Shown here: piece after piece, positions 3,547 to 33,499 of the stretch
Layout of the letters: every line of letters begins with the position of its first letter
Numbering within the stretch: the first letter of the stretch is position 1
Origin: Raillietiella orientalis
Lineage: Eukaryota
NCBI GenBank assembly: GCA_036172245.1
Contig: JAYWIR010000096.1
Coordinates: forward strand, 186,001 to 247,657
Direction of reading: 5' to 3'
DNA: 61,657 nucleotides
Position numbers and translations under genes: made by a program
Notes under the pieces: generated by a model
The model's database searches: none
The model's input: only the letters and a program-made list of their open reading frames with translations
What the model was told of the DNA's origin: nothing

Positions 3547-3667
3547 AATTGTGCTCGTGTGTACCCGGAGAGGGGAAGTTTTCCAGACGAAACCAACAAT
3601 AAGAAGCGGGGAGGAGATCGCGGCAAAAGACCTGCAGTTGTCCCGTGCAGCAAGACCAGCTGCCAGG

Positions 3668-5427: not shown

Positions 5428-5440
5428 GTCTTCCCTTTTT

Positions 5441-8400: not shown

Positions 8401-8959
8401 CGAACGCTACGGGAGTGAACGGTTCAACCTGTTAGCGATCGGCACGACGCTCTGGAGGAGTGACCTTCCGCCGGGCACCCAGGATGACCTCCTGATGTTT
8501 TATCACGGAGGAATCCAGAGTGGGTCCCGATTGCAGCACTTCACAGGAAGACGGGAAGACCGAGACTGCGCAGCATGTGGAGACGACGACAAGAGACTTC
8601 ACGTCTTGACGTTTCCCTCACTGCTGCATGTCTGGCTGATCCTGGAAAGGATCATAGGACTTACCAACAAGTCCGTTATGGAGATCCTCGCCGGGATGTT
8701 TCATGGGGATGGTAATGTTCCCTGTTACAATCCCATGGTGAGGACGACCATAGCCCTCTTCATCACCGCCATACTTGTGCGGTGGTGGAAAATGAGGAAA
8801 GCCAGGAGAGTCGCACCACCGATGGAGATCCTACAAGGGCACTTGAAGAGGGAAATCGGCATCAGGAACTGCGGGAAGATCCACTCCTGGACGTACCGAT
8901 TCATCCTGAAGAGGATCCGGGACGACGCCCGGGACCATCCAGCTGGAATTTCCCCCTGA
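5441..8959 (+). pseudogene. A1 ORF2, APE endonuclease-reverse transcriptase; one in-frame TAG at 7913-7915
   Basis: SWNVNG, AGDLN, IDHVL, SDH; WRPISILNSDAK, DMEKAFDSIDH, GVRQGDSLSP, AYADDL, KYLGV; ORFs 5336-7915 and 7955-8959 share a frame; the catalytic QE reads QK in this copy. Confidence 0.94.
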
Positions 8960-9062
8960 AAAGCAGAACACTAGTGCAACCCAAGGACCCCCAAGTGCAA
9001 AATGTTTGTATTGAGTGAATGAGAGTGCGAATGTAAATTTTGTATTTTTGTAGAAAAATAAA

Positions 9063-10339: not shown

Positions 10340-10459
10340 GTTGCACTATGCTACTTGGCAGGTTGCACAGGAACACACAAGTGCGAGCAAAAACGCAGGC
10401 ACAAAGTTGCCCGATCGTTGGCACGGATAGACGCGGAAACACGTCTGCACTGTACGAGC

Positions 10460-11192
10460 GCAAGAGATCGAACGGATCACGGGTGGGCGGCTGTTGTGGC
10501 GTTGCGGCACCGCGAAATCAAGCGGTGTCTTCTTCCTTCTTCGGCCAGCAATCGAGACCGCAATAAAGGACGTTCGGTACGATGACGCTGGTCGCGTCGG
10601 TCAGCTGACTCTCAGCTGGTCCGACTCTATCGTCCTGGTCGTCAGTAACCTATACGCTCCTAGCGGAAACGCTGCGTTGAGGGCGAAGGCAAGAAGGGAG
10701 TTCTACCTTGCCGTGAGACGCGATTGGCTGACCGATGCAGGAGTTCGCAAAGTGCACCTGATCGCAGGTGATTACAACCTGCGCCTGCTTTCAGGTGCGC
10801 CGGATACACTGAACGACCGCGTCAACGAGTTTTGCGCAGAAATAAACACGCTCAACTTGTTGGCCGGGGACACGGCCATTGAAAGCAGCATCGATCACGT
10901 GTACCTTGATCAGCACCTATGCTCTCGGGTGGGCAAGCGCGGCAAGGTGCCATCCGAGCTGTCGGACCATGGTCGGATCATGTTCGAAGTCCGTCCGCGC
11001 GACAAGGGCCCCCCTCGCCAGCGTGGCGTCTGCCAGGGGACTGGCTGAAGTTTCCCGCCGCGGCGGAGCACCTCCGCGCGTATATTCGGAGCTTCAGGAT
11101 GCAGACACTTCCGGACTGGGACCGCTGCAAGTGGTCGGTTTAGGAGTTCTGCGACCGGTTCCCTTTGCATCGCCTACCTACGGGATTTGGGG
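10460..11192 (+). mobile_element. Host LINE H: APE endonuclease fragment between BC1 and G1
   Basis: AQEIERITGGRLLWRCG, NLYAPSG, IAGDYN, SIDHVYL, SDH, ending PLHRLPTGFG. Confidence 0.88.
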
Positions 11193-11408
11193 TTTCCACC
11201 CGGGTTCGCTCGGGGCGTCTATTGTATGAAACTCTACAAGAAAACGTGGTACAAGGCCCCACTAACGGCCACACAACACCGGATTTGCCGGGACGCCGGG
11301 ACGCAGCCCGGCGTGACGCTCCTCGGCAGTGGAGGGGGATAGGGATCAAAACAAAAAGAAAAATAAAGATAAGGAAAACAAAAAAGAGTTTGGAGGGAGG
11401 GGAAGGGA

Positions 11409-14400
11409 TCACGTTCCACTTAGAGGAGGGTCCATCCTTCGTAGGATGCCCTCTAGGTCCATCTTCATCTTTACCAGATGGGGCCGTCTCGCTGCTCTCC
11501 GCATGAAGCAGACCGCATACGGGATTACATCCCTCACGTTGGCATCCACTCCTTCGTCGCGAATGTCGCTCCATGCCGCCACGATGCCCCGGATGCAGCA
11601 GAGGGCTGCGATGGCTGCGGCGGGCTGCAGGGCGTCCCGCACGAAGAGGGGCCGAAGAACGTCTCTGGGCGCGCTGCCCGCTGGGAGCCCGAAGGTCGTC
11701 CGGAACCGTTCCCACAGGGGTCGGAGGGCAGCACAGTCAACTAGTAGGTGGGAGAGCGATTCCCCCTCCCCACACCTGGCACACTCAGGCCTTACACTCC
11801 CCCGCGTCCATTGGAAGCGGCGCGCGTTGCAGGGTAGACCCCAGTGCAACAGTAGCAGCGCCGACTCTTGCCACTTAAAAGGGAGAAGCCTGGATCCGAT
11901 TAATATTGGGGGCCACTTCAGGTCATCCGTCGGGATGCCGAGCAGCTCGCCCCATCGACGAAGTCCACGAGGGAGGGCACTCGGGGTTGTGACATCTGCC
12001 AGTTCTCCCATGGTCCAACCGCTCATCTTCTTCTCCTTGCCTGCGATTCGGCAGGAGACTTGCCACTTTGGCTTGCAACCGCTGGTTAAAGCCCTCCGGA
12101 AGAAGGGCAGATTTGAAGCTAGAGGGATGGTCTCCGCCCACGTGCTCCTGGCGAGACACTCCAAAGTTGTCCGCAGTGTGCAGCGGGCGTTGGGGCCGAA
12201 TCGCAGGCGGTTCTATTCCGGGGAGGTCTGGAAGTTCAGCTTGGCCCACGTCGCAACTGATTCCTTTAGCCAGGCGGAGGAGTTGGCGAAGCTGCATACC
12301 GTCCAGCCGCTGGCTTTGACCAGGGTTTCCATGCGCCCAAGAAGAAGGCCGCATCTTCTCACCTTCCTGCCGGAGCACAGAAGGTACGACGCGAGTCCTT
12401 GCGTCCTGGACACACGGCTCGCAAGGATTCGGGCCGGAACGCACCAAGGGGTGCTCCATGACTTTGCTGCGATGGCGAGGGTGCGCCATCGCAGCTCTAT
12501 TTCCAGGCGCTCCAGCGTCAGGAGACCGAGACCGCCGTCCCGACGAGGAGCGCATAAATCATCCAGAGGCACACGTGGCCTCCCGCTGCCCCAGAGGGCG
12601 ATGCGGAGTAGGTCCTTTGTCCTCTTTTTAATGTTACGGGGGACGGGGCACACAAAAAGCAGGGGGCGGAGGATGCGAGCCGCGAACGCGTTCCACACCG
12701 TGGCCCGTTCCAGCAGAAGGAACTTGCCTTCCAGGAACGGGCCGATTGCCAACTCTACCTTTTGGAGACGACCTGATCAGGCTTCTGCGAGGCAGAATTC
12801 CCCCAAAGGAGCACCCAGGTACATTAGGCACCTGGCCGCTGAAATCCCCAAGCGGAACCATTAAGGCCGTCCGACTCACGTCGCACCAACCGGAACCACA
12901 GACGACTTCGCCTTGTTTACCTGCAATCCTGTCCCACGGCTGAGCAGATCGAAGAAATCCTCCGCTGCGGCTGCCTGGGAGGACATAAGCAACATCAGCA
13001 GAAGATCGTCGGCGTATGCTGCAACGGCGGGCGTGCCGGGGCACGAGCTGGGCAGGGCAGCCAAAGTCACCCTGTACGCTCTCAGCACCAGCACAAAGTA
13101 GGTGCTGAAGAGCAGGGGAATGAGGCTATCGCCCTGCCGTATGCCCCGCCGCACCGTCACGCCGTACACCTGTTGGCTGGAAAAAACGATGTTTTCAATG
13201 GCATTGCGCCAGCATGAGCGCAGGTAGGAGAGAAGGGAGGGTGGGAAGCCCATGCGACCCAGGAGCTCCAAAAGTAGCTCCTGGTCTACGCAGTCGAACG
13301 CCTTGTGGAGATCGACCGCGATCGCTAGGGCTCTCTTCCCAGCCCGGGTATCCATTTCCAGCCCAGCTGGCGGTCCCAAAGTGGGGTTGCCAATCTTTCC
13401 CCCTGTGTCGTTCAGGCAGCGCTGCACATGGAACCATGTACTTGCGAAGAAGAGGTTGGCATCCATACTTCGCCCGGAAACAGCGTACGTCTGCTCCGGG
13501 CTAATTATTGAGTCTGCCACCTGTCCTAGACGCGAAGCTCACAGTCCAGCGACCAGCTTGGCGTCCGTATTCACAATTGTAATCGGACGCCAGTTGCCTA
13601 GGGATCTCAGATCTCCTCCCTTCGGGAGGAGCCTCACACGGGCTGACCGAAACCAGGCGGGAACTTCGCCTTCGTCTCGGATCAGCCCGGTCAACTGGAG
13701 CACCAGGGGGGCCAGCTCTGTCGCGAAGCATCCAAAAAATTCTGCAGGCAGGCCATCCTTCCCTACCGCCTGACGCCTCTTAATTCTTTTAATACCGGCG
13801 AGAATTTCACCGGTAGAAAAAGGCTCGTCGAGGCTGATCCTCTCCTCCTCCCCTATTGCCTGGCCTCCGTCCGGAAGCAGGAGCCGCGAGGCGTCCTGCT
13901 CTGGGGGTGCTTTAGTGTCGAGGGAGGAATAATACTGCCGCACGATGTGCCTGATCGCGGGCTGGGCCGATCGCTCCCGGCTCTGGTCGTCCAGCAAGCT
14001 GGCCGAACCGGATTGGCGCTCGGCCCTGGCCCGATATTCGGCCAGGCGACGGACACTGGGTGTCCTCTCGTACCGGCGGGCGTGTAAATAGGCCCTATGG
14101 TTCCGAGCCCCCTCCCCAAATCCAAGGGGCAGGCGGTGCAGGGAAAACTCCTCGCAGAACTCGCGGACCGAGGCCTTGAAGAGGTCCCAATCTTTGAGAC
14201 TGCGGAGGGTGACGCCTCTCAGGAATTCGCGAAGGTGTTCCTTCGCACCTGAGAGCCGCGTCCAGTCCCCAGGCAACCGCCACGCCCTGGCCGGGGTCCT
14301 TTATCGCGCGGGTATACCTCGGCGATTAACCTGGAATGTTCCGACAGCGTCGACGCAACTTTTCCCCGTTTGCCGACCCGCAAGCACAGGTCGACATCCA

Positions 14401-14995
14401 GGAAGAAGTGGTCGATGCTGCGGTCCATTCCCTCCGCGTCCGCCAACAAGTTGGGCGTGCGCATGGCAGCGCACAACTCGTTGGCTGTGCGTTCTTGTGC
14501 TTCGGGATAACCTGACAGCAGACGGAGATTGAAGTCTCCAGCTATCAGGTGTGCCTTCCGCACATTCATGTCGGCCAGCCAATCGCGCTTCAGGGTTTCC
14601 AGCAGCCTGGTACGGTCGCGGTACCACTGTTTGCCGCTGGGGCGATACACGTTTGTGACGATTAGTTCGATCGAGCCGGACCAGCTGAGAATCAGCTGAC
14701 CGATCCGACCGTCGTCATCAAACCGCACGCCCTTTACGGCAGCGTCGATGGCCGGCTTCACGAAGAACGCGACCCCGCAGGTGTTGCGGAGGCCGCACCG
14801 CCAATACAACCGACCCTCCGCGATCGTCTCGATCTCCTGGGCGTCTGCCGCGGTGATCACGTGGATCTCCTGCAGCAGGGCCAGGTCGAGCTCACGCAGG
14901 GTGTCGGCCGTATCTCGCCTGTTACCGTCGTCGCGCAGCCCGTCGACGTTCCAACAGGCGGCGCGAATCCGACGGCGACTGGCGAGCCAAGGTGT
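11409..14995 (-). pseudogene. G1 ORF2 (APE-RT-CCHC), several frameshifts and stops
   Basis: Collinear ORFs 14219-14860 (AGDFN, SIDH), 13539-14276 (WRPITIVN), 12876-13520 (DLHKAFD, QGD, YADD), 12213-12752 and 11409-12164 (CARC..H..C). Confidence 0.92.
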
Positions 14996-16741
14996 TATTC
15001 CTGGGAAGATGGCGATGCGGCGTCCGCCACCTGTTGGGGCGGGACGCTAGGTGGAGGAGGAGGGTCAGGCGCTGCGGGCACCTGGTCCCCCTCCTCCATG
15101 GGTAACGGCGCGTCGAGCGGGTCACCCTTAGGTGGGGTCGCGCCTTCCTGTTGGCCCTCCTCCATGGGGGCGGGCTGTTCAGGCTCGGCGACTGCAGGGA
15201 GGAATTCGTCCCCCTGCTCACCCTCCTCCATGGGGGTGGCCGGCTCGACGGCTTCCGAGCGTGGGAGTTCCCCCTCCGGGATTCCTACGCTACCGCTACC
15301 TTCCTGCTTCTCCTCTTCGCTGGTGGAGGGGAGGCGCCTCCTGGGTTTCTGGGACTTGCGTCCCGACTTCCTGGAGGGTGCTTCCGAGGAGGAGGATGCA
15401 CTTCCGGCCCCCAGGTCCGACTCACCTGTGGGGGCCGTTTTCGCGGGAGCCGGCCTTCGCACGGCCTTGCGTGAGGGGTTCTCACGCTCCGCCAGCGTGG
15501 CCGCGAGCTCCTCCGCCGCGTTTGTGAACGCGGCGTCCTCGGTGTCGACCGGCGCGTCGCGCGGCTCACCCTCTGTTTGCACAGAGTGTTCGCCGTCGCG
15601 AACTTCGGGCGCGACGGAAACGGCGAGGGGAGGCTCGTCGCCCCGGGTGGCCTCTTCCGGAACGATGGTACGTTCCAGTGCCACCGTGCACTCGCGTAAG
15701 GTTTTCGAACGCTGCCCGGGTTTTTTTGCCTTGCCGGCCGGCTTCTCTTTCTTCTCCTTTAAAGGAGATTTTTTCTCTTTTCTGCCTGCTACAAGTTGCC
15801 AGCCATCTTCACCTTCCGCCTCTTGGGAAGGTTTACCCTCCGTCTTTTCTTTTGGAGGTTGAGGATCTGGCAGTTTCAGCCGGCCAGCGTCCGCCTTAGG
15901 TCTTGCGACCTTTAGTGCGCGTTTCCCCTGCGCCTTTTCGCGGCAGGAGGAACCGGGGTGGGGCGTTTTGGGCACACACGTCGGACGTGGCCCTTCTCCC
16001 CGCACATGTGGCATTGGATGTTAGGACACCTCTTGCGAAGGTGTCCTACGGTATCGCAGTAGCCGCAATACCGGGGCTTTCCCACGTACCAGAGGTCCAC
16101 GCTCTCTTGCGCGACCTCCAGCTTGTGGGGAAGCCCACAATCCTTACTCACGGTTACCCGCGCTTCAGCCTGACCTCCGAAATGGCTATTGAAGCCTTCA
16201 AAGATTGTTGGCTTAGGCCACAGCGCGTGCACCTCGCCGAACTTCCGAAGTTCTTGTGCTACCGCAGAGCGAGTCATACGGCTCGTTATTCCAGTGAGAT
16301 GGACCACCACGGAGCGGTCCATCGTCACCGGCAAGATCTTGCGGCCGTCGAAGTTCAACGGGATGGTGATCAGAGTCTGAACCAAGGTGATCTCCTTGCA
16401 CACCACCTCGACTCGCTGACCTCCGCTGAGAACGTACAAACCGTCAAGACCTTGTTCTCTAGCTCCGGCATTTTGCAGAGCTTTCGAAAACGCGCGTGCC
16501 GTTTTCCGTCAAATAAGGGGCCTACCTGGTACACCAAGCTGGACTTGTACCCAGCTGCCCGGTAGGCCGCCATCTCGGCCACGGTTTCCGCGCTCGCCGC
16601 GGCCACCATGGCCCTCCAGCTCCTCGCCTTGGACGGCGAGGGCGATTCCGGGGCGGACGCCCCTGATTCGGTAGGCTGTGGGGGTGGGCAAGCCTCCCCC
16701 ACACCTACCTCCATCGTGGTGTCCTCAGGCATCGCTTCCAT
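14995..16741 (-). pseudogene. G1 ORF1 zinc-knuckle protein, frameshifted
   Basis: ORF pieces 16370-16774, 15912-16439 and 14995-16014; ends SSQE-stop. Confidence 0.88.
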
Positions 16742-16833
16742 CGGACACCAACGATGTTCCACACCAAACAACAATAGAAAAAACCTCTTCCTGTCGACTC
16801 ACTCGGGAGCGAAGGAAAAACACGTCCACTCGC

Positions 16834-17673
16834 CAAGGGCTTCGGTGAGGGTGTCAGGAAAGAGCGGGCGTACCTCTAGGCGCGCCTTTATTCACGGCGT
16901 CCCGACGTCCGTCGCCTGGCTGAATTCAAGGCTGAGGCGGAGAGGCACGCCTGGCAGTCAGGCTCGGCCAGCCTGCTGGATCATCAGGGCCAAGAACGCT
17001 CCAGCCTAGCCCAGGTAAACCGCATCGTGCGGGAGTTTTATTCCTCCTTGTACGTGCCACTAACACCTGAGCGCCATTTCGCGCAACGCCTGCTGCCGGA
17101 TGGTGCTCCCGCGCTCAAGGAGGAGGACCGTTCCAGATTGGCGGAACCGTTCACGATGGCGGAGATCATCTCCGCCATCAACAGGCTCAAGAAAAAGAAG
17201 GCACCAGGGGAGGACGGCCTGCCCCCGGAGTTTTACCATCGCTTCGCGCCAGAGCTGGCCCCCCTGGTGCTCAGGTTAAGTGCGCTAATTCGCAAACACG
17301 GCGAAGTTCCCGCCTCGTTCCGGTCAGCTAAAGTACGTCTCCTGCCGAAGTCAGGAGACTTACGCAACATTGGCAACTGGCGTCCCATCACAGTAGTGAA
17401 TGCGGACGCAAAGTTGTATGCCAAGTTCTGATCTGAGCGTTTGGGGCGGGTGGCCGCTTCCGTGGTGAGTCCCGAGCAGACCTATGCTGTTCCCGGACGA
17501 ACCATGGAGGCCAACCTGCTCCTCGCCAGCTCATGGTGGCAGTTGCGACAACGCGTTGCACAGGACGGTCAAGGGAGCCTCGCGCCCCCCTCTGACCAAG
17601 AAGATCGGGCAGAGGGTGAGATGGACTCGGCGGGAGCCTTTGCCGTCGCGGTCGATTTGCACAAAGCATTCGA
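16834..17673 (+). mobile_element. Host LINE E, part 1: ORF2 linker to RT motif AVDLHKAFD
   Basis: GFGEGVRKERAYL, KAPGEDGLPPEFY, WRPITVVNADAK, AVAVDLHKAFD, then an abrupt switch to the D1 3' end. Confidence 0.9.
17659..17673 (+). repeat. 15-bp target site duplication of D1, left copy (GCACAAAGCATTCGA)
   Basis: Identical 15-mer at 23245-23259 on the other side of D1. Confidence 0.95.
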
Positions 17674-17704
17674 TTTTCACCCGGATTTCGCCGGGGCGTT
17701 TATT
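17674..17704 (-). terminator. Conserved 3'-terminal AATAAA plus CCCGG/CCGGG hairpin (representative of 11 occurrences)
   Basis: Also at 86-111(-), 11193-11223(-), 25335-25364(+), 25779-25807(+), 28345-28375(-), 43539-43568(+), 45675-45700(+), 46383-46412(-), 57891-57919(-) and 60536-60554(+, truncated). Confidence 0.8.
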
Positions 17705-17893
17705 GTAAAATAAACTTTTACAAAGACGTGCAATGCCTGGACCATTGCTCCAGCCACGCACGAAGAAACACAGAGCCTGCCATGTCACCGTTTCGCAGAC
17801 CGGTACGGTCCACCACGGCAGCAGGGTGAAGGAAGAAAAACAAAAAAAACAAAACAAAAAAGAAAAGAAAAGTTGGGAGGGTAAGGGAAGGGA

Positions 17894-20800
17894 TCACAGT
17901 TGCTGGTGGGGCCGTTGCATCCCTTGCAGGATGCCGGCAAGCTCCTTCTGTATTCCTGGATCCAGGTGGGGCCATAAAGACGCCCTCCTCAGAAACTTGG
18001 AGGCTCGCTGGATGGCACCCTGGTCGCGTTGTCCTCCCGTAGCTTTGCTCCAAGCGGTGACGATCCCGCGTAGGCAGCACAAAGCTGCTAACGAGGCCGC
18101 TGGCCGAAGGGCGTCGGCAACGAAGAGGGCTTTCAGTGCGTCCCTGGGGTTGCCGCAGGGGATTCCGATGGCCGCGGCAAAGCGAAACCAAAGGGGCCGA
18201 AGGGCAACACAATCCACTAGCAGGTGGGGGAGGGACTCCCGTTCCGCACACCTGACGCAATTGGGGTCCACCGCTCTCCACGTCCAGTGGTGTCGGCAGG
18301 CGTTGCAGGGGAGTCCCCAGTGCTGCAACAGGAGAGCCGACTCCTGCCATTTCAAGGGGAGGGCGGAAGTGTTCATGAGAACCGGGGACCACTTCAGATG
18401 TTCAATGGGAACATCGAGCAGCGCGCCCCAGCGCAGAAGTCCATTGGGAGGCGTACTCGGGGTCGCAGCATCTGTAAACTGTCCCGTCTTCCACTCTCCT
18501 ATCTTCTTCTCCTTTCCGGAGATTGTTACTGTAACCACCCACTTCGCCGCAACATCGCTGTCCAGATGTTTTATCAGGGAGGGCAGCGCAGCAGCAAAGG
18601 GGGTTCTTCCTGCCCACGCTCTCTTCTTTGGATCCTCCAGGATCTCGCGGAGCGTGCAACTTCTGTAACCCCCAAACAGGAACCTTCGTTCCTGTTGGGA
18701 GCGTTGCATGCTGAACTGTAACCACGTTCGAACGGTTTCCTGCAACCAGGCACTACCGTTAAACGGGCGACAGGTGAGCACTCCTAGGATTTTCCGATAC
18801 AGCGCAGCCACCCTCCGTAGCTGGAGTCCGCATCGGTTGACGCGGCGACGGAGTGCAAGAAACGACGTCAGTCCCGACTTGCCGGTGGCTTGCTGGAGAA
18901 GGAGACGTGCAGGGACGCACCAACAGGTGCACCACAACTCTGGAACGAGTGCCGACAAGCGGAACTGGAGCTGAAGCTCCAGCCGCTCCAGCGGCAGGAG
19001 GCCCAGACCACCATCCCGACGAGGAGGGCACAAGTCCTTTAAGCGGACTCGGGCCCTCCCGTTGCCCCAAAGGGCGATACGGAGGAGGTCCTTTGTCCGC
19101 TTTTTAATTCTCTCTGTGGAGGGGCAAACAAAAAGCAGGCGGCGGAGGAGAGGAGCCGCGAACGTGTTCCAAACCGCGGCCCGTTCAGGCAGGAAAAACC
19201 TGCCGCCTCGGAATGGACCGATCGCCGTCTCTACTTTTTGAAGGCTGCCGGACCACGCTTCCGCAGGGAAGTAGTCCCTCAACGGCACACCAAGGTACTT
19301 GAAGTACCTCACCGTGGGGATCCCCAAACGGACCCAGTCCTGCTGCCCTGCCCACGCCGCACCAACTGGAACCACGGATGACTTCGCCCTGTTCACCGTA
19401 AGTCCGGTTCCCCGATGCAGCAGGTCGAAGAACTTCTCTACCGCCGCAGCCGGGGTGGACATAGGGAGCAGCAGCAGAAGGTCGTCCGCGTATGCCGAAA
19501 CGGCCGGCGTACCAGCACAGTCGTGCGGCAGGTGCGCCAGAGTTCCCCTGTACGCTCTCAGTACCAACTCAAAGTAGGTACTGAAGAGCAAGGGGCTCAG
19601 GCTGTCTCCCTGCCGGTTCCCACGCCGCACCGGCACGCCGTGCACCGTCTGCCCGCTGAAAGTAACATTGATGAGCAAGTGGCGCGAGCAGGAGCGCAGA
19701 TAGGCCACTAATAAGGCCGGGAAGCCCAAGCGTTCTAGAAGCTCCAGAAGCAGATTCTGGTCGACGCAATCGAATGCTTTCTGCAAGTCCATTGCGACCG
19801 CAAGGGTTCCCTCCACCACCCGACCATTTAACCTTTTGCCGGCGCACGCACCGGAATTCCGGCAGCGCACCAAGCTCCTTTCATGTTGGAGCTCTAGCCA
19901 GGTGGAAGCCTGAAACAGGTTCGCCTCCATGCTTCGCCCGGGAACAGCATATGTCTGTTGCGGGCTGATGAAGATGTTGGCAACCCGTCCCAGACGCTCT
20001 GCCCAAACCTTGACCACCAACTTGGCGTCCGCATTCACTATTGTGATGGGACGCCAGTTGTTCATACTCCTCAGATCTCCTCCCTTAGGGAGAAGCCGCA
20101 CCTTTGCCGAACGAAACGAGGCGGGAACGTCACCTGTTTCGCGTATCAGCAAGGTGAGTTGCTGTACCAGGGGGGTAAGCTCAGCCGCGAAAGTTTGATA
20201 AAACTCCGCGGGCAAGCCGTCCTCCCCTGGAGCCTTTCGCCTCTTGAGCTTTCCGATGGCCAAGAGGATCTCGTCCATCGTGAAAGGCTCGTCGAGGGTC
20301 TATCTCTGCTCCTCCCCGATCGCTGGAGTGCCTTCCGGAAGCAGGAGTCGTGAGACGTTCCTCTCCGTAGGTGCCCTGGCATACAGGGAGGAGTAGTAAC
20401 TCCGCATCAGGCCGCGGATTTGGGAAGGTGCCGATTGCTCCTGGCCCTGATCGTCCAGTAAGCTGGCCGATCCGGACTGCCAGGCTTGCCTCTCGGCTCC
20501 CGCTTTGTATTCCGCCAGCCTGCGGATGTCGGCGGTGCTGGCGTAACGACGGGCCTGCAGGTAGGCTCGTTCGTTACGGACCCCGGTCCCAAAACCCGTA
20601 GGTAGGCGGTGCAGAGGAAACTGGTCGCAGAACTCCTGGACCGACCGCTTGAAGCGGTCCCAATCCTGGAGTGTCCGCAGACTGAAGCTCCGTATGAACG
20701 TACGGAGATGTTCCGCCGCGTCCGGGAGCTTCAGCCAGTCCCCTGGGAGACGCCACGCTGACGAGGGAGGGCCCATGTCGCGCGGATGGATCTCGAGGAC

Positions 20801-21475
20801 TAGCGGGCGATGGTCGGACAGCTCGCACGGTAACTTGCCGCGCCTGCCCACGCGAGGGCACAGGTGCTCGTCAAGAAACACGTGGTCAATGCTGTCTTCC
20901 ATCCCCGGTGCACTGGCCAACAGATTACAGGTGTGCACCGCCATGAACACTTCGTTGACCAGGTCACGCTCGGGATTCTGCTCATCTGGTTTCAGGCGAA
21001 AGTTGAAATCGCCTGCAACCAGATGGGCATTCCGCACGCCTGCTTCGGTCAGCCAGTCTCGCCGGAGGGCAAGGAAAAACTCTTTCCTCTCCCTCCTGTT
21101 CATCAGGTGCTTGCCGCTCGGTGCGTACACGTTCGTGACGATCAGATCGATCGAGTCGGACCACCTGAGAGTCAGCTGGCCGACACGACCGTGATCGTCG
21201 AACCGCACGCCCCGAGCCGCGGCCTCGACGGCTGGCCGAAGCAGGTAGGCGACACCGCAACTTTTCGCTCTCCCACACCTGTACCATAGCTGCTCTCCGG
21301 AGATCCATTCGATCTCTTGCGGTTGTTCTGCAGAGATCACGTGGATCTCCTGCAGCAGCGCAAGGTCGTAGGACTCCAGAAGGGCGGCCATGTCTCGTCT
21401 CCTGCCGGCGTCTGTCATGCCGTTCACGTTCCAAACGGCGATGCGCAGACGACGGCGGGAGGAGATTCCCGGCAT
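17894..21475 (-). pseudogene. D1 ORF2 APE-RT-CCHC (~1190 codons); one in-frame TAG at 20300-20302
   Basis: WNVNG, LLQEIH, NVYAP, AGDFN, SIDH, SDH; DLQKAFD, QGDSLSP, AYADDLL, KYLGV; CVRCAERESLPHLLVDC. Confidence 0.95.
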
Positions 21476-23151
21476 TACTGCTGGGAAGATTGAGGTGTGG
21501 GGGAGCCCTCCTCTTGCGAGGCGGGCGGGATGTCCATGGGGGTTTCGGCCTTCTCAGACACCTGAGGCACCTGTTCGGCCTCCACCCCCTCCATCCCCTC
21601 CGTGTCCGTGCGTGGGAGTCTCTCGGGCGACAGGTCCCGAGAGTTTCCCACGCTCATGGCACCCTCGCTTGCGGAGGCCATCTCTTCCCCTTCGACGGGG
21701 AAGACGAGCTTCCTTGGCTTTGTGGACTTACGTCCAGCCTTCTTGCGCGGTGCCGTAGAAACGGAGGCTGCGCTTCCGGCCTCCACCTCGGGGTCGGAAG
21801 TGGGGGACTCCTGAGGGGAGGCCGGACGCCTTACGGCCTTCTTGCCAGCCTTGGAGGGTTCTGGCTGCAACGAGGCTGCCAGCTCCTCCGCGGCTCGCGC
21901 GAAGGCTACGTCATCGATGGTGGTGTCGGTGACGGACGCCGCCGCCCGCTCGCTTCCCTCGCTGTTGACTGTGTCAACAGAGGGGAGGTCGTCGGTAGCG
22001 GCGAGTTCTTTCCGGCAGCGTTCGGCAACATCGAGAACGCGTTCGACAACGACGCTGCACTCTTTAATTATCGCGCTAACCTGCTCTTTCTTCTTCTGTT
22101 GGTAGGCGATTTTCTTTTCCATCCTCCTCTCCTTCTTTGATTTTTTGGCTGTTGCCACTTGCCACTCAGTCTCCTGGCCGGCTCCCTCAACTTTTTCGGC
22201 GTTGGTCGCCGGAGTCTCGGGTGCGGCCTGGGTCTTGGGCGCGGGTGGCACAGCCTTCGCGGCAGCTTTCGCCGCCAGTCTTTTCTGCAGAAGCCGGGCG
22301 CGTTTTTTAAGGTTTCTCTTGGAAACCACCCGCACTGCTGCTTTTGGGCACACCTCCCTCGTGTGGCCCATTGTGCCGCATACTTGGCACTTCACATTGG
22401 GACACCTCTTTTTGAGGTGGCCCGACGTATTGCAGAAGCCACAGTATTTCGGCTTCCCCACATACCAGAGGTCGACGGTTTCGCCTTCGACCACCAGTTT
22501 GTGGGGAAGAGTGCAGCCCTCCCGAACGGTCACGCGCTCAGCAGTGAGGCCGTGTTGCAGCCTCGTGTAGTCCTCGAAAGGACTAACTTTCGTCCACTGC
22601 GCGTGGAACGTTCCAAACTGTTCCAAAGCGGCGCGAACCTGTTCTTTGCGCATTCGCGCGGTCACGCCTAACAGGTGGACCACCATGCTGCGGTCTGCCG
22701 TAGTGAGGAGAACCCTGCGCGTCCCCATCACAACGGGGGTTTTAAGCAGTCGTTGGGCCAGCTCTGCATGTTTGCAGATGACCTCAACATACTGACCCCC
22801 GCTGCGGATTGTCATAGCGCTGAGCTCCTCCTCTTTCACATCGAGAGCGCGCGTGCTCTTCGAGAAGGCGCGCGCGCTCTCTCAAGAATATAAATTGCCT
22901 ACCTTGTAGAACAGTGAGGGGTTGTACCCCTACTCTACATAGGCCGACAATTCCGCCGCGGCTGCAGGCGATGGCGCCGACACAACGGCGCTCCACGCCC
23001 GCGCTGCAGCGGGGACCGATTCTGTGGGGGCGGATGCCCTCACCTCCATCGCCTCTGGGGGCGACGTTGCCGCCGCCCCCTGGCTCTCCATCGCCTCTGG
23101 GGGCGGCGTTGCCGCTGCCCCCTGGCCATCCCTGGTGGTCGCGTCAGGCAT
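21475..23151 (-). pseudogene. D1 ORF1 zinc-knuckle protein; one in-frame TAG at 22930-22932
   Basis: CGFCNTSGHLKKRC and CQVCGTMGHTREVC; TAATG stop/start overlap with ORF2. Confidence 0.92.
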
Positions 23152-23244
23152 CGCTGCCTGATCGACCACCGAACCACACGACGCTTGCACTGGGGGAGAC
23201 TTCGTGGCACGAGGAGCACCGAGAAAGCACGTCCACCCTAGAGC

Positions 23245-25364
23245 GCACAAAGCATTCGACTGCGTCGACCAGGATCTCCTTCTGGAGCTCCTGGAACGCA
23301 TGGGTTTCCCTGCCGTGCTTCAATCTTACCTGCGCTCCTTCTGGCTCAACGCGTCAATCAATATTTGTTTCAGCGGCCGGCACGTGTACGGCGTGCCCGT
23401 ACGCCGCGGCATCCGGCAGGCTGACAGCCTGAGACCCTTGCTCTTCAGCATCTACTTCGAGTTGCTGCTGAGGGCATACAGGGTAACTCTGGCAACGCTG
23501 CCGAGCTCGTGTGCCGGCACGCCTGCCGTGTCGGCCTATGCAGACGATCTTCTGCTACTGCTTCCCGGGTCCACCCCGGCGAGTGCGCTCGAGGATTTCT
23601 TCGAGTTACTGCGCCGCGGGACGGGGATGGAGGTGAACAGAGCGAAGTCGTCTATGATGTACGTCGGCTCGGCGTGGGCTGGACGGTCGGACTGGATCCG
23701 CTTGGGGATTCCCACGGACAGGTGCTTCAAGTACCTAGGCGTTCCAATGGGGGACTTCTGCGCAGCAGAAGCCTGGTCGGACCGTCTCCAAAAGGCAGCG
23801 TTGGCGACCGGTCCGTTCCAAGAAATCAAGCTCTACTTGCAGGAACAGGCCGCGGTGTGGAACGCGTTTGCGGCCCCCCTTCTTCGCCCCCTACTTTTTG
23901 TGTGCCCCGCTTCTTACTTCATCCGTAAACGAGCAGCGGGAATCCTGAGGACAGTTCTTTGGGGCGAAGGGAGGTCCCGTGTGAGGCTCAAAGTCTTGTG
24001 CGCTCCACGTAAGGACGGAGGACTTGGCGTTCTTACGCTGGAGCGCATTGAATTACAACCCAGATTCAGGACTCTCGCCCTTGCGGCGGAATTGTTGGAC
24101 ACGCCTTGGTGCGTTCCAGCACGCCTTTTGGCCCAACGAGCCTGCGGATTCGACGGACTTTTGTCGTTTCTGCTAGCACGCGACCGCAGAGAAGCATACG
24201 GCTGCTTAATCCTGCGTCGCATGCAAGTTGCGGTACGGGAGAACGCCTGGATCTCCTGCCGCCCAGGGAAATACTTTGCATGGCTGCACGAGTCAGTGTG
24301 CACCTGGGTAAACATCCACATTTCGGCGGGCACAAGAAACACTTGCCTGCAAAGGCACGCCCGCTGGAAACTGCAGGAGATCGTGCAGTCCCACGAAAAG
24401 CGCATGTGGGCTTTGATAACCCCCTTTGCCCCAGTGCTGCCCTTCCTCATCGACGCCATGGACAGAAGGGAGCTTGGGAAATGGAACGTGTCCTGCACCG
24501 TTGGAGGCAGGACGCAAACGATTATGGCGTGGATATCTCGGCAGCTAGCGGACGCGGCGACGCCGAGAGTCCCGCCCAACGGAATTCGACGCTAAGGCGA
24601 GCTACTCGGACTATCTCCGGAGGAGATGAAGTGGCCCCCGGCGTCCTGGAACAGTGGATCCCTCCCCCTGAAATGGCAGGATGTGGCGTTGCTTGTGGTC
24701 CTTTGGGGACTTCCATTCAAAGCGCGCCTTCATCACACAACCCGGGGGGCTGTGGATCCTTATTGTGACCGGTGCGGGGAAAAAGAGACCTTCCCCCACC
24801 TTCTCATCGAGTGCAGTGCCATCCGCCCTCCATGCGATCGCCTTACGGCGATCGTGGACTTGCGCGGATGCGGCCCTATGGACGTTTTTAGGCTCCTCTT
24901 CTGTAGTGACGCCTTGTCCCCCCCCTCTTCTGTAGCAGTCCTCTGCTGCATTCGATTGATCGTGGCGGCTTGGAACGCCACCAGAAGAAGACGTCAGCCA
25001 ACCGGCAACGCCTTACGGTTCTCTCGCCTATTCGTCCGAGACGTTTGCAAGTGGCGCCACTTGGGCGCTGAAAGGACTCAGCTTGTACGGATCCTGGATA
25101 GGATCTAGAGGACCTATCCGCGCGCACGGTGATCCCCTCCCTGCCCTCCCATTCCCGAAACATTTGTTCCCTCCCATACTTCAACTATTTGTTTGTTTTT
25201 TGTTTTTTTTTCTTTCCCTGCCCCCGCGCATCGGATAGACCTCTCCGGCATAGAGCCGGTAAATACCAAGCTGTTTTGTAGTGGTGGACCTTTGGGTTCA
25301 ACACGCGACAATCAATTGTAATTTTATTCTTTTGAATAAATGCCCCGGCATTTCCGGGTGGAAA
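23245..25364 (+). mobile_element. Host LINE E, part 2: TSD right copy, rest of RT, CCHC, 3' UTR and hairpin
   Basis: Resumes HKAFDCVDQDLL, then AYADDLL, KYLGV and CDRCGEKETFPHLLIEC; ORF ends at 25108; AATAAATGCCCCGGCATTTCCGGGTGGAAA at 25335-25364. Confidence 0.93.
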
Positions 25365-25375
25365 CGCGGATCACC

Positions 25376-25807
25376 ACCAGGCGGCCTGTCATTGCGTGCT
25401 GTCGTTGCAACCGTTTGTTGCACCCGCGCCATCGATAAGGCCCACCGAGAGTTGGAGAAACTGGCCATCCTTCGTCAGCCCACCGGATTAGCCAGCGCAA
25501 ACATGTCGTCGGCTGCCCAGTGGGCCCATCTGCCACAGGGCGTAAGGAGAGAGATCGCCGGCATCCATCGCCGGTTTTGAAAGGAAGGAACGGATTTACC
25601 AAAGACCCCTGTCCCCTTCCCTCCACATTTTTCTTTTATTTTTTTATATAGTAGTGTGTTTGTGGTCCCTTCCCTCCTGTTGCGAACTTTCGGCATACCG
25701 ACCTGCGTGTCGGGGATCCCACCCCCTTCGTCTCTGGTTTTCCCCTTTGTCCGGGAACCCTGTTCCCGGATAGTTTATAATAAACGCCCCGGCGCACCCG
25801 GGTGACA
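25376..25807 (+). mobile_element. LINE F2, heavily 5'-truncated (ORF2 tail plus 3' UTR)
   Basis: Matches the reverse complement of F3 57891-58325 (VVATVCCTRAI..HLPQGVRRE..IHRRF and the UTR); possible short ATCACC duplication at 25370-25375 and 25808-25813. Confidence 0.88.
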
Positions 25808-28075
25808 ATCACCCGTCCCTCTGCGATCCTTTCGATCTCTTGGGTATTCTCCGCGGTAATCACGTGCAGGAGTGCCAGGTCGAAGTCACGCAGGGTAGCG
25901 GCTGTGTCCCGTCTGTTGCTGTCGTCGCGCAGCCCGTTCACGTTCCAGCAGGCCACGTGTAATCGACGGCGACAGGCGGGCCCAGGTGTTACTCCTGGGA
26001 AAGTGGCAATGGGGCTCCCGCCACCTGGTCGGGCGGGACGGATAGAGGCATGAGGGCACCGCCTATTGGTTCTCTTACCTGCATGGGGGCCGATTTCTCG
26101 GCGGACCGCAACGGTTGAAGGGAGCATGCTTCACGCACCTGCTTTCCCTCTTCCATGGGGGCCGATTCCTCGGCTGCGTTGGACGGTAGGGGGGAGCGGT
26201 TCACATCTGTCTGCTCTTCCTCTTCCATGACCACCTATTCCGCAGGCTCCACCGGTGGAAGGGGGAGGCAATGCCCTACCTGCTCCACCTCCACCATGGG
26301 GGTGGCCGGCTGCTCGGTGGCGGAGGGTGGGAAAATTCTTCCTTCCGTTCCCAGGCTGCCGGCTTCCCACTCGGCTGCCGGTGCGTCCCCCTCGCTCTTC
26401 GTCTGGATGCGCCTCTTGGGATTCTTGGACTTCCGTCCAGTCTTCTTCGGAGGCGCCTCCGTGGAGGAGGACGCACTTCCGGCATCCGGGTCGTGGTCAC
26501 CTGTCGGAGGTGCCCTGGTCGCGGCCGGCCTTCGCAAGGCCTTTCGCGCGCCGTTCTTACGCTTGGCGAGTTCGGTTGCGAGCTCTTCCGCCGCCTGCTG
26601 AAAGGCGGCCTCGTCGATCGCTGCGAGCGCGTCGCGCGGTTCCCCCTCTGTTCGCACAGAGGGTTCGCCTTCCGTGATCGCGTTATCGTCGGCGTCGACG
26701 CGGGGGATATCTCTTCCGGTGGCGGTCTCAGGTACCTCCACACGCTCCAAAGCGACCGAACATTCGCGGATCAACGCGCGGCGTTGTCTCCTATTTAAAG
26801 GAGACGTCGGGGGTTCCGCTGTCGACCCTTCGGTTTTCTTAATTTTCTTGGCTTTAGGCTTCGCCTTCTGCCAGCCTTCGCTCTTTTCAGCGTCGTAGGT
26901 ATATTCCACGACCGGCGTTGGCTGCACGGGCTCGGGCTCCGGCTGTGGGTTCCGTCTCACGGGTGCCTTCGCAGGCTTTTCCGTAGCCCCCGCGCGTTTC
27001 CCATTGGCCTTTTTCAAGACAGCGGGAGCCGGGGGTTCGCGCTTGGGGCACACTTTGCGGAGGTGGCCCTTCTCTACACAGTGAAAACACTGAATGTGAG
27101 GGCACCGGTTTTTCAGGTGCCCTGTGGCATTACAGTGTCCACAGTACTTGGGCTTGCCCACGTACCAGACGTCGACTGTCTCGTTGCCGACGTCTAGTTT
27201 GTGGGGTAGCCCACCGTGTTGGTGGACGGTTACACGCGCACCAGCCTTGCCACTAAACAGTCTTCCGTAACTTTGGAAGACGTTGGGCTTGGTCCATAGC
27301 GCGTGAACCGTTCCGTAATTTCTGAGTTCCTCCTGCACGTCGGCTTTCGACATGCGAAGGGTGACTCCCGTGAGGTGCGTCACCACGGAGCGATCCTCCG
27401 TTACCTGGAAAACCTTTCGGCCTTCCAATGTGAGTGGCGTATTCAGTAGGTGTTGAGCAAGGCTTGCATTTCTGCAAGTCCCCTCCACCAGTTGACCACC
27501 ACTCAACACGGAAAAACTTTCCAAGTCTTCCTCTTTTACGTTCAAGCGCGGCAACTCCCTTTCGAAGTTGCGAGCGGTGTTCCCGACAAACAGATTGCCT
27601 ACCTTGCATATCAGGGACGGCTTGTATCCCTGCTCTAGGTAGGCTTTCTTCTCGGCGAGGGCTGCAGGAGATGGGGCTGCAGCCACTGAACTCCAGGTCT
27701 TCGGCGATGCCGAAGACGCATTCGAGGGTGCAGGTGCTCCCTTTTTCAAGGTAGCATTTGTCCTCTTTTTCAAGGGAACAATTGCACCCTGTTCCAGCGG
27801 GCTTTTGCCCCCTTTTTCAAGGGGGCTTTTGCCCTCGCTTCCGAGGCGGCGGTTGCCTCCTTTTTCAGGGGTACGGCTACCGTCGCCTCCGTGGGGGCGG
27901 TTGCCCCCACCTCCGTGAGTTGGGGAGAGGAGCGAGCCTCTCCCCCTCCTATATCCATCGCGGTGTTCTCAGGTATTCCGGCCATTGGACACTGCAGATG
28001 CTTCACACACAAACACAATCGAAATCACCCGCTTTACACCAGGCGCGGAGGAGCGCTACAAAAACACGTCCGCAC
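25808..28075 (-). mobile_element. LINE G2 (G-related subfamily): 5' end, ORF1 and start of the endonuclease
   Basis: 5' GGACGTGTTT at ~28062-28071; knuckles CGHCNATGHLKNRC and CFHCVEKGHLRKVC; ORF2 start ACWNVNGLRDD..EIERIAEGRV cut by F2. Confidence 0.9.
25989..27985 (-). pseudogene. G2 ORF1 zinc-knuckle protein, with frameshift and stop
   Basis: ORF pieces 27770-28018, 26235-27773 and 25989-26234; repeated (P/T)LKK motifs at ~27735-27875. Confidence 0.87.
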
Positions 28076-28344: not shown

Positions 28345-31300
28345 TTTTCACCCGGATTTCGCCGGGGCGTTTATTGTAATATAAACATTTACAAAAACGT
28401 GCGGTGGCTAAACCATTGCTCCAGCCACGCACGGAGAAACACAGTGCCTGCCAAGTCACCGGTTCGCAGACCGGTACGGTCCACCACGGCAGGAGGAGGA
28501 AGAGAAAAAAACAAAAAAACAAAACAAAAAAGAAAAGCAAAGTAAGGAGGGTAAGGGAAGGGATCACAGTTGCTGGTGGGGCCGTTGCATCCTTTGCAGG
28601 ATGCCGGCAAGCTCCTTCTGTATTCCTGGATCCACGTGGGGCCATCGGGACGCCCTCCTCAGGAACTGGGAGGCTAGCAGGATGGCACCCTGGTTGCGTT
28701 GTCCTCCCGTAGCCTTGCTCCAAGCGGTGACGATCCCGCGTAGGCAGCACAAAGCTGCTAACGAGGCCGCTGGCCGAAGGGCGTCGGCAACGAAGAGGGC
28801 TTTCAGTGCGTCCCTGGGGTTGCCGCAGGGGATTCCGATGGCCGCGGCAAAGCGAAACCAAAGGGGCCGAAGGGCAACACAATCCACTAGCAGGTGGGGG
28901 AGGGAGTCCCGTTCCCCACACCTGACGCAATTGGGGTCCACCGCTCTCCAGGTCCAGTGGTGTCGGCAGGCGTTGCAGGGGAGTCCCCAGTGCTGCAACA
29001 CGAGAGCCGACACCTGCCATTTCAATGGAAAGGCGGAAGTGTTCATGAACACCGGGGGCCACTTCAGATATTCAATGGGAACATCGAGCAGCGCGCTCCA
29101 GCGCAGAAGTCCATTGGGAGGCGTACTCGGGGTCGCAAAGTCTGTTAACTGGCCCGTCTTCCAGTCTCCTATCTTCTTCTCCTTTCCGGAGATTGTTACT
29201 GTAACCACCCACTTCGCCGCAACATCGCTGTCCAGATCTTCCTTCAGGAAGGGCAGCGACGCAGCGAATGGGATTCTTCCTGCCCACGCCCTCTTCTTTG
29301 GATCCTCCAGGATCTCGCGAAGCTTGCAACTTCTGTAACCCTTAAACAGGAACCTTCGTTTCTGTTGGGAGCGTTGCATGCCGAACTGTTCCCACGTTCG
29401 AACTGTTTCCTGCAACCAGGCACTACCGTTCAAAGGGGGACAGATGAGCAGTCCAGGGTTTTTGCGATACAGCGCAGCCACCCTACGTAGCTATAGTCCG
29501 CATCGGTTGACGCGGCGACGGAGTGCAAGAAACGACGTCAGTCCCGTCTTGTCGGTGGCTTGCTGGAGAAGAAGACGTGCAGGGACGCACCAACAGGTGC
29601 ACCACAACTGTGGAACCAGTGCCGACAATCGAAACTGGAGCTATAACTCCAGCCGCTCCAGCGTTCGGAGGCCCAGACCACCATCCCGACGAGGAGCGCA
29701 CAAGTCCGTCGAGCGGACCCAGACCGTCACGTAGCCCCAAAGGGCGATACGGAGGAGGTCCTTTGTCCGCTTTTCAATTCTCTCTGTGAACGGGCAAACA
29801 AAAAGCAGGGGGCGGAGAAGAGGAGCAGCGAACGTGTTTCAAACCGCGGCCCATTCAGGCAGGAAAAACCTGTCGCCTCTGAACGGGCCGATCGCCGTCT
29901 CTACTTCTGGGAGGCAGCCGGACCACGCTTCCGCAGGGGAGTAGTGCCCACACGGCAGATCAAGGTACTTGAAGTACCTCACCGTGGGGATCATGAAACG
30001 GACCCAGTCCTGCTGCCCTGCCCACGCCGCACCAACTGGCATCACGGACGATTTCGCCTTGTTCACCGTAAGTCCGGTTCCCCGATGCAGCAGGTCGAAG
30101 AACTCCTCGACCGCCGCAGCCGGGATGGACATAGGAAGCAGCAGCAGAAGTTCGTCCGCGTACGTTCAAACGGCCGGCGTACCGGCACAGTCGTGCGGCA
30201 GGTGCGCCAGAGTTCAACTGTACGCAATTAGTACCAACTCAAAGAAGGTACTGAAGAGCAAGGGTCTCAGGCTGTCTCCCTGCCGGTTCCGACGCCGCAC
30301 CGGCACGCCGTGCACGGTCTGCCCGCTGAAAGTAACATTGATGAGCGCGTCGCGCCAGCAGGAGCGCAGATAGGCAACTAATGAGGCCGGGAAGCCAAAG
30401 CGTTCCAGAAGCACCAGAAGGAGATTCTGGTCGACGCAATCGAATGCTTTTCGCAAGTCCATTGCGACCGCAAGGGCTCCCTCCCCCACCCGACCATCCA
30501 ACCCCTTGCCGGCGCACGCACCGGAATTCCGGCTGCGCACCAAGCTCCTTTCATGTTGGAGCTTTAGCCAGATGGAAGCGTGGAACAGGTTCGCCTCCAT
30601 GCTTCGCCCGGGAACAGCATATGTCTGTTCCGGGCTGATGAAGATGTTCAAAACCCGTCCCAGACGCTCTGCCCAAACCTTAGCCACCAACCTGGCGTCT
30701 GCATTCACTATTGTGATGAAACGCCAGTTGTTCATGCTCCTCAGATCTCCTCCCTTAGGGAGGAGCAGCACCTTTGCCGAACGAAACGAGGCGGGAACGT
30801 CACCTCTTTCGCGTATCAGCAAGTTAAGTTGCTGTACCAGGGGGGTAAGCTCAGCCGCGAAAGTTTGATAAAACTCCGCGGGCAGGCCGTCCTCCCCTGG
30901 AGCCTTTTGCCTCTTGAGCTTTCCGATGGCCGAGAGGATCTCGTCCATCGTGAAAGGCTCGTCGAGGGTCATTCTCTGCTCCTCTTCGATCGCTGCAGTG
31001 CCTTCCGGAAGCAGGAGTCGTGAGACGTTCCTCTCCGGAGGTGCCCTGGCATAAAGGGAGGAGTAGTAACTCCGCAGCAGGCCGCGGATTTGGGCAGGTG
31101 CCGATTGCTCCTGGCCCTGATCGTCCAGTAAGCTGGCGGATCCGGACTGCCAGGCTTGCCTCTCGGCTCCCGCTTTGTATTCCGCCAGTCTGCGGATGTC
31201 GGGGGTCCTGGCGTAACGACGGGCCTGCAGGTAGGCTCGTTCGTTACGGACCCCGGTACCAAAACCCGTAGGTAGGCGGTGCAGAGGAAACTGGTCGCAG

Positions 31301-31990
31301 AACTCCTGGACCGACCGCTTGAAGCGGTCCCAATCCTGAAGTGTCAGTAGCCTGAAGCTCCGCATGAACGTGCGGAGAATTTACGCCGCTTCCGGGAGCT
31401 CCAGCCAGTCCCCTGGGAGACGACACGCTGACGAGGGGTGGCTCCTGTCGCGCGGATGGATCTCGAGGACTAGAGGGCGATGGTCGGACAGCTCGCACGG
31501 TAACTTGCCGCGCCTGCCCACGCTAGGGCACAGGTGCTCGTTAAGAAACACGTGGTCAATGCTTTCTTCTATCGCCGGTGCACTAACCAACAAATTACAG
31601 GTGTGCACCGCTATGCGCACCTCGTTGACCAGGTCACGCTCGGGATTCTGCCCATCTGGTTTCAGGCAAACGTTGAAATCGCCTTCGACCAGATGGGCAT
31701 TTTGAACGCCTGATTCGGTCAGCCATTCTCTCCGAAGGGCAAGGAAAAACACTTTCCTCGCTTTCCTGTTCATCAGGTGCTTGCCGCTCGGTGCGTACAC
31801 GTTCGTGACGATCAGATCGATCGAGTCGGACCACCTGAGAGTCAGCTGGCCGACACGACCGTGATCGTCGAACCGCACGCCCCGAGCCGCGACCTCGACG
31901 GCTGGCCGAAGCAGGTAGGTGACAACGCAACTTTTCGCTCTCCCACACCTGTAATATAGCCGCCCTCCGGAGATCCGTTCGATCTCCTGC
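28345..31990 (-). mobile_element. LINE D2: ORF2 (degenerate) and 3' end, interrupted in the endonuclease by BC2
   Basis: Highly similar to D1 17674-21320 throughout; DLRKAFD and YADE; several frameshifts. Confidence 0.93.
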
Positions 31991-32110
31991 GCTCGTACAG
32001 TGCAGACGTGTTTCCGCGTCTATGCGCGCCAACGATCGGGCAACTTTGTGCCTGCGTTTTTGCTCGCACTTGTGTGTTCCTGTGCAATCTGCCAAGTAGC
32101 ATAGTGCAAC

Positions 32111-33387: not shown

Positions 33388-33499
33388 TTTATTTTTCTAA
33401 AATTTTTCTATAAAAACATTCACACTACAATCTCATCCATATTATTAGCACTTTTATTTTTACCACTATGAAGTCCTTGGATTCTCACAAGTTCTGCAC

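Follow-up and report, generated by a model that had tools for sequence, protein, structure and literature searches.

A candidate sequence-specific LINE of Raillietiella orientalis with recurrent antisense insertions at reverse transcriptase motif A of other LINEs

Does a retrotransposon that sits inside the reverse transcriptase (RT) gene of another retrotransposon lie there by accident, or is that gene its target? The question is raised by a stretch of 61,657 nt (61.7 kb) of one contig of Raillietiella orientalis (GCA_036172245.1, JAYWIR010000096.1), hereafter the window, to which all coordinates refer. A tblastn map and the reading of junctions resolve most of the window into nested long interspersed nuclear elements (LINEs), with at least 10 copies in the nest. 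The insertion of one of them, D1, splits RT motif A (D-L-H-K-A-F-D) of its host, LINE E. We consider it likely, with a probability of roughly 0.8, that family D is a sequence-specific, L1-like LINE whose integration site is the DNA for RT motif A (..V-D-L-H-K-A-F-D..) of related LINE families.

The evidence that carries this reading lies in three junctions. Two identical copies of a 15-nt target-site duplication, a length measured in D1 only, stand at the exact ends of D1, and the coding strand of host E at the occupied site reads GTCGATTTG-CACAAAGCATTCGA/CTGCGTC, the slash marking the junction. BLAST of D1 against the window located the other copies, including D2 in host I and D3 in host F1. 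The D2 alignment spans 28345-32006, and reading of the junction puts its true end at 31990; at its other end, the 3' junction (28344/28345) is preceded by ...CCACAAGGCGTTCGA, the same motif base as in D1, and the first 35 nt match D1. D3 starts at 2150 (GCTCCAGGGTGGACG...), abutting the reverse complement of GCACAAGGCGTTCGA at 2135-2149, and its 5' end (GCTCCAGGG...) lies at the same motif base in F1 as the D1 5' end (GCTCTAGGG...) in E. On the host coding strands these occupied sites are GTCGATCTC-CACAAGGCGTTCGA/ in I and G-CACAAGGCGTTCGA/CAGCGTA in F1. All informative junctions (3/3) therefore fall on one nucleotide, in one orientation, in three host lineages, with D1, D2 and D3 each antisense to the reading frame of its host. 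The perfect duplication of D1 and the shared, antisense position of the D2 3' end and the D3 5' end had been claimed in the original prediction, and both were confirmed when the junctions were read.

An unfilled version of the E site was recovered as well. Among the contigs of a public run (X1) that were placed on 17000-24000, with 6 of 137 loose contig ends listed, one of 393 nt matches 17299-17658 with 4 differences and then joins 23245, with 15 letters shared exactly. The contig is either an unfilled allele or a very close E paralogue; in both cases there is a host site that lacks D, and the 15-mer is a target duplication. Two further public runs (X2 and X3) gave no contig placed on the studied region.

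The three junctions could, in principle, descend from one ancestral D insertion that multiplied together with its host, whether through segmental duplication, retrotransposition of host plus D, or gene conversion between LINE copies. The window does hold large duplications (2349-10459, 31991-40118 and 49690-57854) and a composite of an F2 element with a nested Y that was apparently copied as a unit, and the 28 nt of host beside D1 and D2 are alike enough to join one BLAST alignment. The hosts, however, have diverged much further than the insertions. Downstream of the motif, E and F1 share 71.2% identity across 660 nt; upstream of it, E and I share 55.6% across 280 nt, I being nearest to LINE H (70.4%). 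Over the stretches compared for the hosts, the D copies are 91-92.5% identical. Directly beside the junctions, the host flanks of D1 and D2 agree at 38/61 positions versus 91/100 in the adjoining element, and those of D1 and D3 at 50/60 versus 95/100. Since the hosts are 55-71% alike and the D copies 91-97.5%, a single duplicated locus, named in the original prediction as an outcome that would refute it, is ruled out; judged by identity, the three hosts belong to separate LINE lineages, as had been predicted. Synonymous differences are found within the 15-mer and right beside it; the two wobble positions inside it that vary among hosts (AAA GCA versus AAG GCG) argue against co-conversion of the flanks. 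Conversion, moreover, would make no duplication, and D1 has a perfect one of its own at a site that also exists empty. We regard a single ancestral insertion as largely refuted and very improbable.

The same observations bear on whether the junctions are real. In favor of a mis-join of repeats during assembly are the highly repetitive character of the region and the run data, which were placed as contigs and not as raw reads and in which no listed contig spans a D1 junction. A mis-join would not, however, leave a full-length element bordered precisely by a perfect duplication of 15 nt or place three copies at one base of three diverged hosts, and the nesting is consistent across the whole window. 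An assembly artefact is, in our estimation, the least probable of the explanations considered.

D1 carries the domains expected of a LINE (Table 1), with two open reading frames (ORFs) between untranslated regions (UTRs). Its endonuclease matches exonuclease III, APE1 and the L1 endonuclease in a comparison with PDB structures, and the closest solved relative of its RT is human LINE-1 ORF2p (E 2.2e-32, against 1e-11 for R2 proteins). Because the RT is far nearer to ORF2p than to R2, family D reads as an L1-like retrotransposon without long terminal repeats (non-LTR), of the L1 clade in the broad sense. Two Pfam matches stayed below threshold, that of the C-terminal Cys-His motif of ORF2 to zf-RVT (18 bits, with a cutoff of 27.5) and that of the ORF1 knuckles to zf-CCHC. 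The family begins with GCTCYAGGGTGGACG... and ends in ...GGGTGAAAA (terminal letters also given as ...CCGGGTGAAAA) without an A-tract; the D1 and D2 3' ends are identical and have no variable A-tail. D1 is not intact. The two TAG codons noted in the original prediction are present, and a TGA in ORF1 brings the in-frame stops to three instead of two.

Table 1. Positions of the elements, domains and sites discussed in the text.
Feature	Position	Strand	Remarks
D1	17674-23244	minus	full-length family D element, 5571 nt; homology ends exactly at the two 15-nt copies
D1 5' UTR	23153-23244	minus	leader, 92 nt
D1 ORF1	21475-23152	minus	two C-x2-C-x4-H-x4-C (CCHC) knuckles, by reading
D1 ORF2	17894-21475	minus	start overlaps ORF1 stop as TAATG
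D1 3' UTR	17674-17893	minus	220 nt
D1 apurinic-type endonuclease domain	20810-21436	minus	Pfam Exo_endo_phos, E 3e-14
D1 reverse transcriptase domain	19283-20089	minus	Pfam RVT_1, E 5.9e-21
D1 3' end	17674-17718	minus	AATAAACG, 5-bp hairpin (CCCGG...CCGGG), GTGAAAA; no poly(A)
D1 ORF2 in-frame TAG	20300-20302	minus	AAG (other base at 20302) in 3/3 covering X1 contigs
D1 ORF1 stops, N-terminal part	TAG 22930-22932, TGA 22882-22884	minus	copy D4 reads GAC and TTA there
D1's own motif-A site	19770-19783	minus	CAGAAAGCATTCGA (D-L-Q-K-A-F-D); unoccupied; H codon differs; T instead of C after nick
Target-site duplication, left copy	17659-17673	plus	GCACAAAGCATTCGA, 15 nt; codons (L)HKAFD of host E
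Target-site duplication, right copy	23245-23259	plus	GCACAAAGCATTCGA, 15 nt; RT of host E resumes here
D2	28345-31990	minus	in host I; 92.6% identical to D1; 5' part cut off by F2B insertion
D3	2150-2353	plus	5'-terminal 204 nt of a D copy, in host F1; 97.5% identical to D1
D4	60555-61657		fourth copy; 93.8% identical to D1; begins at D position 43
Host LINE E	10460-11192, ~16835-17673, 23245-25364	plus	interrupted by H and D1; 5' side cut by F2A
Host I	28085 (approximate)-28344	plus	H-like LINE RT fragment; ends in ...GTCGATCTCCACAAGGCGTTCGA
Host F1	81-2149	minus	LINE RT from motif A to 3' end
Perfect target in LINE H	13294-13307	minus	CACAAGGCGTTCGA then C; unoccupied
F2A	2354-10459	minus	in E; nested Y
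F2B	31991-43569	plus	antisense in endonuclease gene of D2, ..QEI/E.. site; nested Y
F2C	46382-57854	minus	same endonuclease-gene site, third host; nested Y
K	57889-60380 (right end approximate)	minus	5'-truncated LINE; antisense, 34 nt from F2C site, after ..IAEGQL of endonuclease gene
L	25377-25808	plus	in host J, within 1 nt of K site; short duplication ATCACC

The 15-nt duplication points to target-primed reverse transcription, the most likely route of D insertion, over repair-mediated homing. As the D cDNA strand is continuous with the host coding strand at 17673/17674, the first nick would fall on that strand. The D endonuclease would cut it after ...GCRTTCGA and before C (after base 17673 at E), the freed 3' OH would prime reverse transcription from the 3' stem-loop of the D RNA, giving a cDNA that begins TTTTCACCC, and a second cut 15 bp upstream on the other strand would generate the duplication. 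More speculatively, read-through D transcripts with a copy of the target downstream could help register the RNA on the primer, as such transcripts reportedly do in R1.

What would such an endonuclease recognize? The 14-mer CACAARGCRTTCGA occurs with at most one mismatch 8 times in the window, where 0.12 matches are expected (0/100 shuffles reached 8), and all eight near-matches are RT motif-A sites. The window has 12 motif-A sites: four match the 14-mer and three of these (3/4) are occupied, and eight deviate (D1 with CAG, D2 with CGA, K with CGC, F2B, F2C and three Y copies) and are all unoccupied (0/8). As the pattern was itself derived from occupied sites, the comparison is no more than suggestive of an occupancy restricted to matching motif-A sites. 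The changes at D's own sites may protect D copies from one another (2/2 D sites are unoccupied). Alignment places the motif-A Asp (..V-D-L..) at D600 of human L1 ORF2p, the catalytic residue, in agreement with the prediction that the motif contains the catalytic Asp; the counterpart of the H is E602. The further proposal of a site that competitors can hardly mutate fails at the H codon, which encodes Q in D1 and R in D2, in family K and in two close relatives from outside the window (P0001 and P0029), and 8/12 sites deviate. The proposed disabling of competitors is unproven, host E already having an in-frame stop (in the region 17432-17434, upstream of the D1 site) and two other insertions.

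The recurrence could also reflect a preference for the region, such as LINE-cluster or centromere chromatin, with the three hits marking a local hot spot of DNA shape or a weak TCGA preference. Three junctions in one window and an empty perfect site leave room for this, and the cluster-forming LINEs Zepp and Cnl1 are described, in excerpts of the sources that state no base-level site, as targeting existing copies (PMC8226300, PMC9942834). Against it stands the recurrence of the same nucleotide and strand three times in a LINE target of ~5.5 kb per host, for which we estimate a chance probability of order 1e-8 (two repeat hits on one out of ~11,000 combinations of position and strand). In addition, the 3' junctions are identical and without a variable tail, and two other families have recurrent sites of their own. 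We therefore consider a purely regional preference unlikely.

Returning to integration at motif A, several points weigh against it. The informative junctions number three and all come from one 61.7-kb window, and the length of the duplication rests on a single measurement. Because almost the whole window is LINE, landing in a LINE is uninformative in itself and only recurrence at base level counts. The perfect target in LINE H is unoccupied, and D4, which immediately follows the truncated 3' end of another element, gives no information on the target. The metagenome, contig and protein collections scanned yielded no further D copy. The D UTRs show no guide-like complementarity to the target beyond D's own homologous motif and one 9-mer, and by eye we saw neither a nick consensus nor a primer/RNA microhomology shared across families. 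With complementarity and a shared consensus absent, target recognition would be assigned to protein, most likely to the endonuclease, which recognizes the target in R1-type elements.

Outside the window, a 477-aa frame that spans the junction (the antisense of the D 5' leader followed by HKAFD...), compared with 1.84 billion protein representatives, gave 3940 hits at E <= 1e-3 and 1 at <= 1e-30, and the LINE superfamily of D is almost absent from public protein sets. A search with this same frame for proteins that carry the junction peptide retrieved only P0001, matched through its RT part. P0001 and P0029 are uninterrupted at motif A (D-L-R-K-A-F-D). The 21-nt D 3' end was found at nine metagenomic loci, all chance matches in bacterial-looking coding sequence and none D-like, and protein-based locus scans of the genome_contigs and viral_contigs collections revealed no relative.

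D3 is broken at 2349-2354, where D position 204 is joined to an internal point of F2A (endonuclease residue ~187). With two internal positions joined, this breakpoint is a deletion or rearrangement and not an insertion junction; neither the remainder of D3 nor the 3' half of F2A is present. At D4, an E-like 3' end (60440-60554) is cut after ...AATAAATGCCCCGGCA and joined to the copy, the bases to either side (GCAC) being similar, as if the 5' junction of D4 had been lost in a microhomology deletion. Past the 3' end of F2B, 43570-44685 (minus) holds a D-like endonuclease and ORF1 that are ~75% identical to D1, the remainder of D2 reaching 92.6%. Possibly D2 represents a subfamily that has another 5' module; alternatively, F2B may be flanked by parts of two elements. 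H (11193-16834) is split into several short frames and its flanking repeat has decayed (~9 of 13), so the nest contains old layers (H, F2 and K) and young ones (D1 and D3).

D is not a special case in the window: F2 and K/L recur in the same manner at two sites of the endonuclease gene, and every nesting that can be oriented is antisense. In all three F2 copies (3/3) the 5' end GCTCGYACAGTGCAGACGTG abuts ...GATCTCYTGC, the antisense of A-Q-E-I-E in the endonuclease gene. The 5' ends of F2A and F2B are identical at 97/100 positions, and their hosts (E and D2) agree at 29/34 positions beside the junction; in the ~700 nt that follow, their identity per 100 columns is 60-85% and mostly 66-73%. This pairing of close elements with diverged hosts indicates that at least two F2 insertion events were independent. 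For F2C the flank is 28/34 and the element 81/101 identical, a divergence that does not settle independence. K and L form one family (88% identical) with different points of 5' truncation in hosts E_C and J, and their site follows ..I-A-E-G-(Q/R)-(L/V).. of the endonuclease gene. Their flank identity (28/35) is close to that of the element (86/101), so the independence of K and L rests on context and not on divergence. The landing-site stretches beside the F2 and K/L junctions are 57855-57888, 25809-25842, 10460-10493 and 31957-31990. Single nesting events were seen for H in E, E in J, J in I and Y in F2.

All three F2 copies contain a Y-family LINE, nested antisense at one place near the ORF1/ORF2 border. 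Compared between copies, the F2 parts are about as similar as the Y parts (91-95% for F2A and F2B), and the homology of F2A and F2B ends exactly at the F2 5' end, with differing hosts beyond. This limit of the homology and the differing hosts suggest that retrotransposition, and not segmental duplication, copied the 11.6-kb composite of F2 and its nested Y. A GC-rich palindrome (GCCGGCCTACGCAGCCCC..GGGGCTGCGTAGGCCGGC) at ~45704-45800 follows the 3' end of element N and lies near the center of a large inverted duplication (31963-43744 / 46207-57881).

Orientation and termini unite the families. All 12 orientable parent-child nestings are antisense, as are all seven families (D, H, F2, K/L, E, J and Y), which for the families alone gives a two-sided binomial probability of ~0.016 by our arithmetic; element N (44686-45703), whose two flanks cannot be assigned to a single host, was excluded from the count. 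The families share 5' ends of the form GCTC...G(T/C)(G/A)GACGTG(T/C)TTT and 3' ends with AATAAAYG and a hairpin of 5 pairs, one of which shows a compensatory change among 10 sequences, and the 3' layout of D1 recurs in 10 LINE 3' ends of the window. As ideas for the uniform antisense orientation, we consider nicking of the non-template strand of transcribed LINEs and selection against sense insertions. D is probably one of several related families whose landing sites lie in one another's coding sequence and which so build the nested array themselves. A wider picture, to which we give slightly less than an even chance, is a guild of L1-like lineages in which each endonuclease is tuned to a different conserved block of endonuclease or RT codons of its sisters (RT motif A for D, ..QEI/E.. 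for F2 and a site 34 nt further on for K/L). Such a guild, always inserting antisense, would form a self-targeting nested array, possibly centromere-like, and perhaps sustain an arms race of shifting specificities and of target codons that escape, with Q or R replacing H; the antisense rule would then stem from a shared mechanism, such as the nicking of the non-template strand, and not from seven independent accidents.

Sequence-specific LINEs with an apurinic-type endonuclease (APE) include R1, TRAS/SART and Tx1L, and the targets known for site-specific LINEs are ribosomal DNA, telomere repeats, small nuclear and transfer RNA genes, microsatellites and one DNA transposon. An excerpted source lists the R1 and Tx1 groups among these elements (PMC4640811). 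D resembles both groups in combining APE and RT and in recurring at one nucleotide of a multicopy target with the logic of a multicopy safe haven, and it may also pair a precise 3' junction with a fixed short duplication (the duplication measured in D1, the 3' ends in D1 and D2). A safe niche, as originally proposed for D, is a reasonable reading by analogy with other site-specific LINEs. The RT of D is L1-like, and its probable target differs from those listed: it lies, always hit antisense, in the protein-coding RT gene of sister LINEs, the corresponding target of F2 and K/L being the endonuclease gene. The analogy with homing introns and inteins, also drawn in the original prediction, holds for the niche: a selfish element takes up a coding site that is conserved and matters for function, in a gene that is multicopy or essential. 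It does not extend to the mechanism, since a 15-nt duplication and an element with RT and APE point to target-primed reverse transcription: D would spread by reverse transcription that starts at a nick and leaves a duplication behind, and homing introns and inteins by double-strand-break repair. Judged by these features, with no further search for a splicing element, D does not splice and so destroys the host gene; the H codon of its site is, furthermore, variable.

Nested clusters comparable to the one in the window are formed, according to partial sources, by the L1 elements Zepp (Coccomyxa/Chlorella) and ZeppL (Chlamydomonas). Zepp has a poly(A) tail. We rejected the identification of D as Zepp, since D has CCHC knuckles in ORF1 and no poly(A). 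In the excerpts at hand, ORF1 of the Coccomyxa L1 is described as lacking RRM and CCHC domains (PMC5203782), unlike D ORF1 with its two knuckles, and Zepp as forming one nested cluster per chromosome in Coccomyxa, the clusters being GC-rich and 1.5-42 kb long (PMC3446292). These excerpts state no base-level target for Zepp, whose arrays are described as mostly 3' ends in tandem, whereas the nestings in the window are antisense and involve several distinct families. The non-LTR element Cnl1 of Cryptococcus prefers to insert into itself and forms nested arrays, again from an excerpt (PMC9942834); as described there, it inserts in sense tandem, near telomeres and into its own family, whereas D inserts antisense, into other families and at a coding motif. 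None of the excerpts on Zepp and Cnl1 describes a base-level target within a coding motif or the antisense use of other families. In the literature searched, part of it in excerpts, we found no LINE with the RT gene of another LINE as its target; an earlier statement on the Zepp target site is possible. D quite probably represents a sequence-specific LINE whose class of target is new.

A LINE that uses the catalytic-motif codons of other LINEs as a safe haven would occupy a new niche and, if the reading is true, would provide a clear example of a transposon that lives as a parasite of others. It would also offer a base-level mechanism by which nested LINE arrays build themselves, such as the Zepp-type clusters proposed as algal centromeres, without targeting at the level of chromatin. 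Closely related elements with different precise nick sites would provide a natural series on the specificity of apurinic-type endonucleases, of relevance to retrotransposon-based insertion tools, and the variable H codon would make a testable system of target escape.

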